Origin: Eledone cirrhosa
Taxonomy: Eukaryota
Direction: 5' to 3'
Length of the DNA stretch: 64,000 bases
Assembly (NCBI GenBank): GCA_964016885.1
Contig: OZ024742.1
Coordinates: 171,306,001-171,370,000, forward strand
This document shows, one piece after another, positions 15,776 through 59,597 of the stretch (the stretch's first letter is position 1; each line of letters starts with the position of its first letter). The position numbers were made by a program, and so were the translations under genes. Below the pieces are notes generated by a model. The model did not search any database and had not been told where the DNA came from. It saw only the letters and a program-made list of their open reading frames with translations.

Positions 15776-15956
15776 TAGTAGAACAGTGGAGGGTTATATC
15801 CGTAGTAGTAAAACACTCAGTCCCTGGGACGAGTTTGGTAGAAGTATTTCCAAAACAGTTAGTTCACCATTACCGAGGACAATTGTTTCACCTTATTCGG
15901 ATAAGATGAAACAATTGTTCTCGGTAATGCTGAACTAACTGTTGTGGAACTACTTA
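15776..15956. mobile_element. Fold-back two-arm insert with hammerhead 3' half (GAAAC-AATT-GTC) between (TA)n tracts
   Basis: 15842-15897 is inverted at 15900-15955; the minus arm continues to 15776. Confidence 0.75.
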
Positions 15957-15966
15957 TATATATATA

Positions 15967-16197
15967 AAGTAATAATAATAAATTTGAAGACTAATATCCA
16001 AAGAGGGCTCGATAAGGGTTAATATATATCAAATATATAAGAACCGTAGAGCAAATATTTATTAAAATAACATTAAAGTTTAAGCAAATAATCTCTGCTT
16101 TCACTCTTAACGGGATCTTCTGAAAATCAGAAGATCCCGTTAAGGGTGAAAGCAGCGATTCTTTGCTTAAACTTTAATCCGTTTTTTTTTAAATAAA
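15967..16197. mobile_element. Two-arm insert of the CAGAAGA-hammerhead PLE 3' end
   Basis: Minus arm 15967-16125 and plus arm 16127-16197; homologous to the copies at 14222, 30060, 56185 and 57361. Confidence 0.85.
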
Positions 16198-16429
16198 TAA
16201 ATAAATATATATATATATATAAATATATATATATATATATATATATATATATATATATATATATATATATATATATATATATATATATATATATATATAT
16301 ATATATATATATATAAATATATATATATATATATATATATATGTATATATATATGTATATTTAAGGCATTCTATATGTGTATGAGTGTATGATTGTAGAT
16401 ATATATGTGCATATATGTATACAATACAT

Positions 16430-17025
16430 ATCTATCTATCTATCTAAGGCGGGTAAAATTCCCGAGATCCATGGACGAGTTCTCTCCAGCGGTCTCTGTC
16501 CCTTATTATCGCTGCCATATCCTGCATCTCCAACAGACCAGTGTCTGTCCTTAGGGCATCAACATATGTTAACCTTGGTCTTCCTCTTCTAGTGTGTCCA
16601 TGTAGGGGCTCCCAAAGGAGAACTGAGTGCAATGTCAACTCTGGATGTCGGTGAGCATGTCCAGCCAACCTCAGTCTCCTCTGAGTCACTTTTGAGCTGA
16701 CTTTTGGGATGCTCCCATACAGCTCTGAGATTTTCATCCTCAGTGTATACTGATTAATGTTCAGAGCCATCCTCAGCATTCTCGTGTAGCACCCATCCAC
16801 CATCTGAGTGAGTCTCTTGGTCAGTGTCCAAGTCTCAGACCCATACTAATGTAGGCGGGAAGCGGCTGGAATTGGTTGAGGACTTCCTGTATTTGGGAGC
16901 AAAGATTGGGAATACGGAAGATGATGTGGTTGAGAGGAAGAGCAAGGCCTGGGCGGCGTGTCACAGCTTGAGATCGGTGTGGAAGTCGGACCTTCGCAGA
17001 GACCTGAAAATCCGCCTCTTCATTA
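16430..17025 (-). mobile_element. RTE-clade LINE 3' end with a 5' inversion (twin priming) and GATA tail
   Basis: Minus 16846-16441 gives YGSETWTLT..DGCYTRMLR..RRLRLAGH..RGRP; plus 16847-17025 gives VEDFLYLGA..KAWAACHSL..WKS..LKIRLF, the RT segment that normally lies just upstream. Confidence 0.85.
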
Positions 17026-18184
17026 CAATACATATATATGTACATATATTCATATATACATATATACGCACACAAATATATAAATGAAAAATAACAAAAG
17101 AAGAAGATACTGCTAATAGTATATAAAAAATTAATTATATATATATTTAAAAGGGTTCTTGCAAATTGAGTCATGATTATCTCATTTGTTTTTTAACCAA
17201 CCAGTTTCCGCTATCGTAAGATTTTCAAACCATGATTTCCAAGTTATTTTAAACTCATATCTTTATATGCCACTCAATTCTATTCTATGACAAGAGACTT
17301 AACTGATGATATCCTTAATATCGCTTATTTTATAATGGCAAATAATGCGATGCCTGGGTAATAGAAATGGGATTCGGTAACAAGCTCAACCAGTTCAAAT
17401 TCGGTTTGTATTTCGTTATATAATACAGTCTTTCAATGGCCGGTTGCTTGTCCATTGCTAAATCATAGAATGGGAAATGTCGAAATTTGTCAAGGATCAA
17501 CTTTTTCCAGCATATTCATACATAACGCAATGTTTTACAAACACCATATAGAATATTATGTTTCATCACCAAAATGCAGGAAAGTTATAGTTATGGAATT
17601 CATGTATAAAGCTAGCTGAACACACAAGCCGAAACAGCTTGGCGCCGTCGTCGGGATTTTACATCTCTCTCTCTCTTTCTCTCTTTTATATATATATATA
17701 TATATATATGGTTAGAAAAATTTGTAGATGGAAGATCAAGGAAAACAGTGCTCAATCTGTTGCAATAGAGCACTTAATATGTATGCACTACTATTGGTTT
17801 AGCGGTTCAGTTATGCAGTTATGGCAACTACTATATATTGGTGAAGGCATTTTTAAACTGCTACCCCCCCCCCCCCCCCCCCCCACACACACACATGCAC
17901 ACACACACACACACACATACACACACACACACACATATATATATATATATATATATATATATATAGGAAAAAGAGAGTTTCATGATTTTCAACAGTCAAG
18001 TGAGATACAGAAATATGTGGCAAAGGCGACTTGTATATATATATATATTAGAAAGTGAGGTTTTTTTTACAAAATGAAAAAGAATCGAGGTGTCCTACAC
18101 GATTGAAAGTATAAAGAAAAAAAGATGAAATCGAAAATGCAACTGGAGTCTTGTTTTTAAAAAAAATATATATATTTATTTGGT

Positions 18185-18224
18185 TCCTTTACCGGTTTCG
18201 CAGTTCTTCTGCTTTTCAAAAGTA
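18185..18224 (-). ncRNA. Minimal hammerhead motif, U3-A8 variant
   Basis: TACTT-TTGAAAA-GCAG(aagaa)CTGC-GAAACCGGTA-AAGGA, followed by AATAAA and (TA)n. Confidence 0.65.
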
Positions 18225-56420: not shown

Positions 56421-57360
56421 TATATATATATATATATATATATAAATATATATATATATATATATGTGTGTGTGTGTATGTGTGTGTGTGCGCGTATGTG
56501 TATGTGCGTGCGTGTGTGTGTGTGTATGTATAAATATATTCAAGAACTTTCCGATGGAGTTCTTGCCATTTAACGGTAACAATATGAGCTAGAATAGATG
56601 CCAGCATATCGAGCCAAAACGTTATTTGAGGATGCCACTGTGTTGTAGATACATGTTGTACACACACATACATACATATATAAACACTTTCTAGAACACT
56701 TCCAAAATATACTCCACATTGATTATCCATACATTGGGAATCTGAAGGAGAATTCCATATATATTATGTCAACACTAGAGTAATTTGGCCCAGAGCTGAA
56801 TTATTTGCCTCTAAAATCAATGGATCAAGCAGCAAATCTTTTGTTTACCTGCAGAGAAGTACAATATTCTTATGAAGCCTATCGATACGAAAGCAAATTA
56901 GAAGATCTTGTGTCGTATTGCCGACGTGAGTAAGAAGTTCTTGAGAAATATCTTCAACATACAGCGGAGGCAGCATTATTCTGCGCGTGAGTCGTCTAGT
57001 CACACCATCTGGTAATTATAAATACTTCGCAAAACTACTAATTAGCTAGACTGACACACACACAAACACATACAGACACAAAAAAACGCACACACACACC
57101 CACACACACACATACACACACACACACACACACACAAACACATACACACACAAAAAAACGCCCCCCCCCACACACATATATATATGTAAGTTAGATCGCA
57201 GATATAAAAGACAGCGAGAAGCGAAAACCAACCAAACAGTGAGTGTGTTCTGTTATTAATTCTGGCAATATTACGCAAATATGACCCTCCCCAAGTATAA
57301 CAATATATATATATATATATATATATATATATATATATATATATATATATATATATATAT

Positions 57361-57846
57361 AGTAATAATAATAAAACTGAAGACTAAAATCCAAAGAGGG
57401 CTCGATAAGGAAAATATATATCAAATATATAAGAACCGCAGAGCAAATATTTATTAAAATAACAGATTAAAGTTTAAGCAAAGAATCGCTGCTTTCACCC
57501 TTAACGGGATCTTCTGAAACTAACAAAGTCAATCTGTAAACGCAGAACTGGATATTTCAAAAAACGTTGCAACCGGAGGAAGACAGGAAGACGATACTTT
57601 GGTTCGTGGAAACGTTCGCTGGCAAAGAACGGGAGAAAACGAATAATGCGTCATTAATAGGAGCGGTGAAAAACAATTACGCGCAAAGACAAAACCACGT
57701 TTATGGTATAAAAGAGGTCGTAGACTAATGTTCTCTTAGGTGGTGCATAGAGACGTTTCAGATTGACTTTGTTAGTTTCAGAAGATCCCGTTAAGGGTGA
57801 AAGCACCGATTCTTTGCTTAAACTTTAATCTGTTATTTTAATAAAT
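57361..57846. mobile_element. Two-arm insert of the CAGAAGA family; hammerhead at 57774-57824 (plus) and its inverse at about 57470-57520
   Basis: AGTTT-CAGAAGA-tCCC(gttaa)GGGt-GAA-AGCA..TGCT-T-AAACT. Confidence 0.85.
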
Positions 57847-58254
57847 ATATATATATATATATATATATATATATATATATATATATATATATATATATAT
57901 ACAAAAGCATGTATGTGTTTATGAATATACATCGATCGTGCCTCGAGTTGGTCGCCAGAGAAACGATTGTAATATGTCCAATAAATTCCATTCGTCGCAT
58001 CACTGATTCTCTTTTTTTCCGTGATATCATACTCTGCTCTAATAGAGCATCAAGTGATCAAACGACCTACCGCATACGGACGCTTTAAGCATCTACAACC
58101 AATTATATATATATATATATATATATAGTAATAATATTAAATTTGAAGACTAAAATCCAAAGAGGGATCGCGAAATAAATAAATAAATATATATAAATAT
58201 ATATATATATATACGATATTAACAAATGGAAACTATATTTATAAAACCATATTT

Positions 58255-58317
58255 ATTTCATTATACATATTTCAAGGATACCAAGTTAAATTATGGTATG
58301 CCTTCATCAGACAAAAT
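58255..58317 (-). ncRNA. Hammerhead of the 19022 family with a covarying stem II
   Basis: ATTTTGT-CTGATGA-AGGcATACCA(taatttaact)TGGTATCCTt-GAAA-TATGTA-TA-ATGAAAT. Confidence 0.8.
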
Positions 58318-58404
58318 ACAATATATACCAGTTTTATAAATAAACATTGACGTACCCTTTCAAAATGCGACCGTTACTTTTGGAAGACATCAATATATAT
58401 ATAT

Positions 58405-59597
58405 ACGTGGGAAAGTAAAAATCGGAGAATAGACCGTTAAAACATGTTTATTTAAAACATCACCTACGTACGTTTCGCCCAGTTGGGCTTCTCAAGGGCA
58501 TAAATAATCACAAGTGTTCCATATATAGTTCGGAAAGAGTTTTGGGGGTTAAATCTACATCAAGATTCATTGCTCGCAAAAATATCTTGTTTTGATTTTG
58601 CAGCAGGCCAAGGGAGGTAACTCTGGCCGGTGTTAGGGCAGTCTTTCCCGGATAATTGTTTTTTTCTTTTTTTTTTTCCGCATCCGTTTGTCTGAGGCTG
58701 GGTCTGGTATGCAAGGATTGTTTTCTGGGTGTTATTTTGCAGCGCCTGCCCGCCGGGGTGTTAGGACTTGTTGCAGGGAGATCCAGTGTACTATTTCACT
58801 CTTCATCCTTAACCCATCTAAAGAAGGAAATTTTTAAGCGATGTGTACAACTTATCGCTGTTTCATCTCTGCTGTTGATGAGCTCGTGGGGTGCAGTTAT
58901 GATGTGGTAGAGCTCCATGAGGCAAAGATCGCATTTCCTCTTGACTGCACCCCACGAGGTCATCAATAGCAGAGCTGAAACAGCGATAAGTTGTACACAT
59001 CGCTTAAAAATTTCCTTCTTTAGATGGGTTAAGGATGAAGAGTGAAATAGTACACTGGATCTCCCTGCAACAAGTCCTAACACCCCGGCGGGCAGGCGCT
59101 GCAAAATAACACCCAGAAAACAATCCTTGCATACCAGACCCAGCCTCAGACAAACGGATGCGGAAAAAAAAAAAAGAAAAAAACAATTATCCGGGAAAGA
59201 CTGCCCTAACACCGGCCAGAGTTACCTCCCTTGGCCTGCTGCAAAATCAAAACAAGATATTTTTGCGAGCAATGAATCTTGATGTAGATTTAACCCCCAA
59301 AACTCTTTCCGAACTATATATGGAACACTTGTGATTATTTATGCCCTTGAGAAGCCCAACTGGGCGAAACGTACGGGGGTGATGTTTTAAATAAACATGT
59401 TTTAACGGTCTATTCTCCGATTTTTACTTTCCCACGTTCTTACGCTTTGCTAACTCTCTAGCCCACTAAATATTAACACTTCGAATATTTAATACTGCCG
59501 GCACTAGTATCGAGCACCTTTGGCATACGCTACTTGGCAAATAACTATATGTATCACCTATCCCCCCTTTTTTTCTCTTTCTCGATACGTAAATACT
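58405..59597. mobile_element. Naiad-type PLE 3' end present as about 493-bp inverted arms, with U3-A8 hammerheads
   Basis: 58405-58897 is inverted at 58944-59437; KCDLCLMELYHII...LINSRDE....CTH is a GIY-YIG C-terminus; GCCC-TTGAGAA-GCCC(aact)GGGC-GAAAC-GTAC-GTA. Confidence 0.85.

Follow-up and report, generated by a model that had tools for sequence, protein, structure and literature searches.

The stretch of DNA analysed here, called the window below, comprises 64,000 nucleotides (nt) of the Eledone cirrhosa genome (assembly GCA_964016885.1, contig OZ024742.1, positions 171,306,001 to 171,370,000). It is AT-rich and crowded with (TA)n tracts. Between these tracts lie insertions built of two inverted arms of one repeat family. 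In an initial annotation of the window, the arms were proposed to point outward into (TA)n, with one reaching the true 3' end of its family and the other stopping at a fixed internal TA-like site. This pattern does exist, and it corresponds to a signature already known for insertions of Penelope-like elements (PLEs). The insertions are mostly already explained, and the structure itself is no discovery.

The window was searched by self-comparison and for inverted repeats within 107 inter-TA-tract segments, followed by family alignments. The resulting catalogue, compiled by hand, contains at least 19 two-arm insertions belonging to 12 families (A to L). The arms are head to head in all 19, and in all 19 exactly one arm carries a tail. 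The short, proximal outer end is named site 1 and the outer end of the tailed arm is named site 2. The tailed arm extends 40-160 nt beyond the position of site 1 (families F and G have 40 nt, the ten others 47-160 nt). Site 1 is on the right in ten insertions and on the left in nine. Both sides are flanked by (TA)n in 18 of the 19; the exception is 25845-27579, whose right end lies in (TC)n(TA)n. Two insertions (2015-2089 and 60177-61200) show that the shape also occurs beyond the 15776-59597 range for which it was first described. The insertions are truncated at the 5' end, with an inverted copy in all 19 and partial tandems in families I and L. No symmetric two-arm insertion was seen among the inverted repeats of the 107 segments.

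Three families have several two-arm copies. Family A has four: 15967-16204 (89-nt family tail on the left arm), 56006-56111, 56188-56418 and 57362-57844 (tail left; hammerhead-like motif with a CAGAAGA core in both arms). As had been claimed, the tailed arm may be longer or shorter than its partner: 56006-56111 combines a 93-nt tailed left arm with a 17-nt short right arm (4-nt junction overlap), and 56188-56418 combines a 192-nt short-end left arm with a 42-nt right arm consisting of tail only (3-nt junction overlap). At 16190-16204, the site 1 end of family A carries extra (TAAA) units, as if slippage had occurred at priming. Family C also has four copies: 2015-2089 (17-nt tail-only left arm on the minus strand and short-end right arm on the plus strand), 28323-28512 (80-nt tail right), 29644-29806 and 47232-47416 (tail left in both). 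Family D has two, 18364-18953 (47-nt tail left; CTGATGA core at 18655 on the minus strand; TA runs inside both arms) and 29897-29997 (60-nt tail right).

The remaining nine families have one two-arm insertion each, with one further single arm in family E. Family B (15775-15954) has a 68-nt tail on the left arm and the 3' half of a hammerhead (GAAAC-AATT-GTC). Family E (19023-19428) has a 94-nt left tail and a full hammerhead motif in both arms (19214 on the minus strand, 19331 on the plus strand). Families F (25640-25818; 40-nt tail) and H (27698-27888; degenerate, 50-nt tail) both have the tail on the right, and the outward orientation of their arms is putative. Family G (25845-27579) is a decayed, 5'-truncated coding PLE on the plus strand. 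In family I (28865-29598), a short left arm is joined to a partial-tandem right arm (unit of about 525 nt) with a 122-nt tail and a CTGATGA core at 29349. Family J (46494-47211) has a 96-nt left tail, full hammerhead motifs in both arms and a 7-nt TA overlap at site 1. Family K (58406-59596) has arms of about 515 nt, a 160-nt right tail and a hammerhead with a CTTGAGAA core. Family L (60177-61200) has two arms that each form a partial tandem of a unit of 466 nt bearing a hammerhead motif, and a 77-nt right tail.

Seven single arms complete the catalogue. Two family A arms end at site 1 (14225-14942, minus strand, left end exact and right end approximate, hammerhead-like motif at 14288; 30060-30758, minus strand, right end approximate), and a third, tail-only arm ends at site 2 (58128-58186, minus strand). 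One arm of family D ends at site 1 (57187-57302, plus strand) and one of family E ends 2 nt past it (58214-58392, minus strand, full hammerhead motif at 58310). Family N consists of two minus-strand single arms (2118-2399 and 23423-23618) whose ends are 47 nt apart; it has no two-arm copy and is excluded from the count of 12. Its nearer end has a 4-nt ATAT overlap, with a CTGA(T/C)GA core just upstream. A partner-arm search covered four of the seven single-arm copies and gave nothing convincing. Of the 14 individual sites that had been quoted as arm ends, 12 have the quoted motif within 16 nt, whereas 16197 (with a TAAA expansion) and 56185 (with AAATTT) occupy the same family position in variant form. 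Three of the 14 (14222, 30059 and 57305) belong to single arms, and a search for their partner tails gave nothing clearly above shuffles (one 28-versus-26 match was on the wrong strand).

Coding remnants identify two of the 12 families as PLEs. Positions 26596-27003 of family G match the Pfam GIY-YIG domain (E-value: 0.0024, under the curated cut-off). Seven database relatives of its decayed reading frame (641-753 amino acids), all with reverse transcriptase (RT) and/or GIY-YIG domains, align over 26115-27003, from the RT thumb to GIY-YIG. With its inverted 271-nt left arm and 40-nt right tail, this insertion has the textbook PLE form. In family K, the outward strand of the left arm (58939-58829, minus strand) gives matches to the C-termini of PLE proteins (29 of 150, best E-value: 1.6e-6; profile E-value: 4.6e-7), and represents the C-terminal end of the endonuclease only. 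The arms of the other families are too short or non-coding, and the RT core is not left in any of these insertions.

Predicted ribozymes extend the identification. Type I hammerheads were searched for with a custom descriptor, and the result was compared with 60 shuffled windows. All 12 matches face outward and fall within arms of five families (A, E, J, K and L), compared with 0.13 matches in the shuffles (maximum of 2 in the 60). Several of the predicted hammerheads have a short palindromic stem III loop, as described for PLE hammerheads (PMC6765202). The predicted cores of two families deviate from CTGANGA, being CAGAAGA in family A (57779, 57516, 30125 and 14288) and CTTGAGAA in family K (58496). 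Partial motifs are present in families B, C, D and I, and none was recognised in F, G and H. Among the top matches listed in an Rfam scan (E-values up to 1), most were microsatellites matching microRNA models; the useful ones were two sub-threshold matches to HH9 in family L (38.6 bits against a gathering score of 52). Of six arm or tail segments that were folded, only the family L tail region was more structured than shuffles (z = -2.8); z was -1.0 to +0.8 in the remaining five, which gives no ground for proposing a tail structure shared by the families. Together, the coding remnants in two families and the hammerhead motifs in five establish that the arms point outward, and both PLE identity and outward orientation are thereby borne out.

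Families L and I are non-coding. Their units (466 nt and about 525 nt) are partial tandems with one hammerhead motif per arm, and no arm has two. Positions 15070-15759 (minus strand) hold a decayed PLE-type endonuclease remnant that runs into the family A arm ending at 14225. A HMMER search with this remnant retrieved 1048 relatives at E-values up to 1e-10, and two of seven long relatives scanned gave weak RT or GIY-YIG matches; a word-index protein search with it had retrieved none of 223 candidates. The remnant may be the coding parent of family A, although no matching upstream sequence is present in the copy at 30060.

The outer ends recur at fixed positions in the families where this can be judged. 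Site 1 falls within 4 nt in six family A arms and on the same base in four family C arms and three family D arms (crude probabilities of chance coincidence of 4e-8, 5e-7 and 6e-5, respectively). Site 2 is common to five family A arms, one with two extra T residues, and to four family C arms. Because nine families have only one two-arm insertion, fixed ends are tested only in A, C and D. The expectation of reproducible end-points thus stands for site 1 in these three families and for site 2 in A and C, but not for the distal end of family D. In families A, C and D, one short end is paired with one tailed end in 10 of 10 insertions, with a probability of about 0.001 if the two ends were chosen freely at 50:50.

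Both outer ends lie inside a longer template. Site 1 is internal in all 12 families. In the tandem families, the template also continues past site 2: the family L sequence that ends at 61200 runs on as TATCGTCTCC at 60734 and 60566, and the family I sequence that ends at 29598 runs on at 29073. Site 2 is therefore internal in both families with a tandem copy that allows this comparison, and the contrast originally drawn between a true 3' end and an internal site is incorrect. The placement of the short-end site downstream of the ribozyme was right: in the five families with a full motif, site 1 is 25-222 nt after the predicted hammerhead cut.

The overlap between site 1 and TA is 4, 1, 3, 4, 1, 1, 5, 3, 4, 7, 1 and 1 nt in families A to L, respectively. 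The sum of 35 nt exceeds the 13.8 nt expected for random positions and phase on the same arms (p = 5e-4), and rises to 39 against 14.8 if family N is included. Overlaps of at least 3 nt occur in seven of the 12 families (1.8 expected). Microhomology had been called usual; it is indeed enriched, but the overlap is a single nucleotide in five families. Together, these values suggest that pairing with (TA)n is favoured but not required. At site 2, the overlap is 3 nt in family L (TAT) and 2 nt in family I. Flank phase and target-site duplications are unreadable within (TA)n.

Of 12 inner junctions examined, nine were scored; those of 18364-18953, 28323-28512 and 47232-47416 were left out because they had no independent reference or formed a natural hairpin. 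The nine readable junctions show overlaps of 0, 0, 1, 2, 3, 4 and 4 nt and insertions of 1 and 5 nt. All four family A junctions are different (three have overlaps of 3, 4 and 4 nt, the fourth a 1-nt insertion), which indicates that each event made its own two ends anew and excludes the copying of one palindromic master. Inner junctions are thus dispersed, as anticipated, in family A, but less so in family C, where three of the four insertions have an arm with its inner end at (G)TCCAG (2033, 28377 and 47367). These shared ends suggest that the template starts at a fixed point or that synthesis is strongly arrested at the loop of hammerhead stem II. The tailed arms of 2015-2089 and 56188-56418 consist entirely of tail sequence and have nothing in common with the other arm, so neither arm is a fold-back copy of its partner; a fold-back would need further trimming to give this outcome.

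In some insertions, the two arms have private variants in common. The family E arms are identical over 110 nt and each differs at 13 positions from the third copy, and the arms of 28323-28512 differ at 1 of 36 positions compared with 2-6 from other copies. Elsewhere, the arms of one insertion differ at 5 of 50 positions (about 10%) in family B, at 11 of 180 in family D and at 11 of 505, plus two gaps, in family K; the divergence in families F and H is higher than in B. These differences argue against read or assembly fold-back.

Much of this architecture has precedents. Inverted 5'-truncated arms, a one-sided tail of 30-40 bp and (TA)n targeting have been published for PLEs, the one-sided tail as a hallmark (PMC8557442, PMC3846280). 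Inverted pseudo-long terminal repeats (pLTRs) with an optional 31-bp tail have been described, with self-priming proposed (PMC3846280), and inverted pLTRs with short 3' extensions are features used in PLE curation (PMC8969392). The endonuclease-positive (EN+) PLEs (Penelope/Poseidon, Neptune and Naiad) resemble the insertions in the window in 5' truncation, partial tandems, a head-to-head inverted 5'-truncated copy, a tail that is often at one end, (TA)n or AT-rich targets, a terminal-region hammerhead and a GIY-YIG domain at the C terminus. They differ in that the tails are 40-160 nt here (above 40 nt in 10 of the 12 families) compared with the published 30-40 bp, and in that a tail is present at exactly one end in 19 of 19 insertions, whereas it is termed optional in print.

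The closest biochemical parallel is the purified Poseidon_Ac protein (PAc) of Anolis carolinensis, which cuts and extends both strands of AT-rich DNA in vitro (PMC11167929). Reverse transcription starts at two internal positions, both downstream of where the hammerhead cuts, and the interval between them corresponds to the genomic tail. Start-site use does not differ between the strands, and the protein is a predicted dimer (PMC11167929). In the window, families L and I likewise have two internal sites that bound the tail. The differences from PAc are a modest TA bias at site 1 and the use of a different site at each end of one insertion. A term search of the main text of PMC11167929 found no discussion of inverted arms.

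Families L and I also resemble retrozymes, the non-coding hammerhead tandem units that have been linked to PLEs (PMC7229834; bioRxiv 10.64898/2026.07.22.740005). Like the animal non-LTR retrozymes, they are short, non-coding tandem units with type I hammerheads. Unlike them, they are partial tandems in inverted, tailed insertions (the word "inverted" does not occur in the text of PMC7229834 available to us), which ties them to the PLE machinery.

In the twin priming of LINE-1 (long interspersed nuclear element 1), both target ends prime cDNA and the inversion is joined by short microhomology. In LINE-1, the second priming site is variable and there is little overlap between the arms. The window's families, by contrast, each have two fixed sites, and overlaps of tens to hundreds of nucleotides between the arms are frequent.

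The one-sided tail and the two internal start sites are thus already published (PMC8557442, PMC11167929). Tails above 40 bp, strict one-of-each pairing and two-ended priming as the cause of inversion were not found in the PLE literature searched, though the 2004-2006 papers and supplements may cover them. What is added here is the longer tails, the 10 of 10 pairing and the arms without common sequence, which make a specific mechanistic model testable.

The two-arm structures are probably 5'-truncated insertions of PLEs and of their short non-coding hammerhead-bearing derivatives, made when both ends of the cut target prime reverse transcription, each at a programmed site of its own, and the truncated cDNAs are then end-joined. 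The proposed sequence of events would be as follows. The PLE RT/GIY-YIG protein would bind tandem or read-through RNA of the element, as is established for PLEs. Its endonuclease would cut both strands of a (TA)n tract, an activity seen in vitro on AT-rich DNA with one anole PLE. Each target 3' end would then prime cDNA at one of two programmed RNA sites downstream of the hammerhead; two start sites are known in vitro, and the use of one site per end in each event is suggested by the window. The tail would represent the distance between the two programmed start sites. A few TA-like bases at the start site may help priming without being needed. Both cDNAs would stop early and independently, and their inner ends may be joined through 0-4 nt of microhomology with fill-in by host repair. 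The outcome would be a pair of arms that point outward, only one of them tailed. Two-ended priming, as put forward initially, gains support from the cutting and extension of both strands in vitro (PMC11167929) and from the arms without common sequence in the window.

Several observations weigh against this model. No intermediate was seen, and the steps from priming to joining are deduced from finished insertions. The distal end of family D is not fixed, lying 13 nt apart in its two insertions (tails of 47 and 60 nt). The enrichment of TA at site 1 weakens to p = 0.04 under a harsher best-phase null and further to p = 0.16 without family J, and PMC11167929 reports no homology between start site and cut DNA. 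Similarity within insertions has exceptions: the arms of 15967-16204 differ at 7 of 66 positions, whereas each has 4-6 differences from 57362-57844, and in 29644-29806 one arm is nearer to 47232-47416 (1 difference) than to its own partner (2). Families F and H are without independent evidence of orientation or PLE identity. Symmetric insertions may be under-counted if perfect palindromes get lost. Finally, the seven single arms have no recognised partner, so either two arms are not obligatory or one was lost later.

The best-surviving alternative is resolution by the endonuclease, the published view (PMC8557442, PMC3846280), in which one priming event and a self-primed fold-back give palindromic DNA that is then cleaved at the TA-like site 1 by the endonuclease of the element itself, trimming one tail. 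This directly explains the TA-like character of site 1 in the seven families with at least 3 nt of overlap. It also accommodates the natural hairpins at the junctions of 15775-15954, 28323-28512 and 47232-47416 and the variants often common to both arms of one insertion, and the Drosophila virilis tail is needed for endonuclease recognition (earlier work cited in PMC11167929). Most junctions, however, are 0-4 nt joins and not hairpins. The arms without common sequence in 2015-2089 and 56188-56418, and a short-end arm far longer than the tailed arm, require extra resection, and both tail boundaries match RT start sites in vitro (PMC11167929). On balance, this route is unlikely to be the main one.

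A second alternative, judged improbable, treats site 1 as a fossil target: the ancestral end of the family, followed by a remnant of old (TA)n, with the tail being read-through flank and priming occurring through base pairing at any TA-like patch, as in LINE-1 twin priming. It would fit the 7-nt TATATAT at site 1 of family J, the range of tail lengths from 40 to 160 nt, the two distal stops of family D (the nearer with an AT overlap) and the 52 nt of the family A tail shared with a presumably Helitron-like element (25370-25626). A fossil target is harder to reconcile with the single overlapping base in five of the 12 families and with other TA-rich patches in the same arms that are not used as outer ends in two-arm insertions (such as ATATATATA of family E and GATATATATT within the tail of family A), nor would it lead one to expect a short and a tailed end together in 10 of 10 insertions.

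Assembly or read chimeras and hairpin-capped breaks, as forms of artefact or of DNA-level fold-back at TA tracts, can practically be dismissed, and so can the copying of one palindromic master, despite the density of (TA)n and one TA-centred palindrome (13672-13831), as the arms of one insertion differ (families B, D and K), the palindrome centres are unique sequence and not TA, non-palindromic two-arm cases occur, the junctions vary among copies and the same shape has been published for other species. Inverted-repeat DNA transposons (miniature inverted-repeat transposable elements, MITEs) were rejected because the ends are asymmetric and because lengths and junctions vary among the copies of families A and C.

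Two-ended priming with one site per end can be extended, tentatively, to a broader proposal. PLE integration may be obligately asymmetric, with one ribonucleoprotein (probably a dimer on tandem RNA) assigning the two (TA)n ends to different programmed sites. This would yield the inverted pLTR and the one-sided tail together, in coding and non-coding families and at spacings of 40-160 nt. The broader form carries less confidence than the insertion route itself and is somewhat doubtful.

Other elements are present in the window. The short element at 25370-25626 (plus strand), which we take to be Helitron-like, has TCTATATAT at its 5' end, GTCT repeats and a 3' hairpin followed by CTAG; the part that matches the family A tail (25547-25598, about 52 nt, 85-87%) has the opposite sense to family A. 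The palindrome at 13672-13831 is centred on (TA)22, has (CT)n/(GA)n at its outer ends and differs at 3 of 58 nt. Its topology is opposite to that of the two-arm insertions, and it is probably a DNA fold-back. At 21747-21877, a 34-nt palindrome with a one-sided extension of about 97 nt has (GT)n as its left flank and (TA)n as its right flank, and is possibly the same two-arm architecture in a mixed microsatellite. Three single-copy units between TA tracts have CTGANGA...GAAA on the plus strand (7515-7735, 23138-23383 and 49858-49953) and could be further insertions with non-overlapping arms. Positions 31176-42922 and 63140-64000 hold a tandem array of an L1/Tx1-like LINE, with two units 97% identical over 4.1 kb and an open 1153-amino-acid frame (37825-41286) with endonuclease, RT and zinc-binding domains. 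A family of about 190 nt that resembles short interspersed nuclear elements is represented by six copies, 82-97% identical (1792-1985, 2809-3021, 3184-3397, 8508-8690, 45165-45384 and 54729-54854). Further dispersed repeats are found at 13034-13313, 24050-24342, 48964-49365 and 52283-52711, and also at 28551 and 59973.

The origin of inverted, tailed PLE insertions is called unresolved in PMC8557442 and PMC3846280. If it holds genome-wide, a rule of one site per end would unite the inversion and the tail in one testable model, and the asymmetric two-ended rule would supersede the published explanations by self-priming and endonuclease resolution. Short hammerhead elements would then be moved by the PLE machinery. 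For annotators, asymmetric palindromes in (TA)n would be real retrotransposon insertions and not MITEs or assembly errors.

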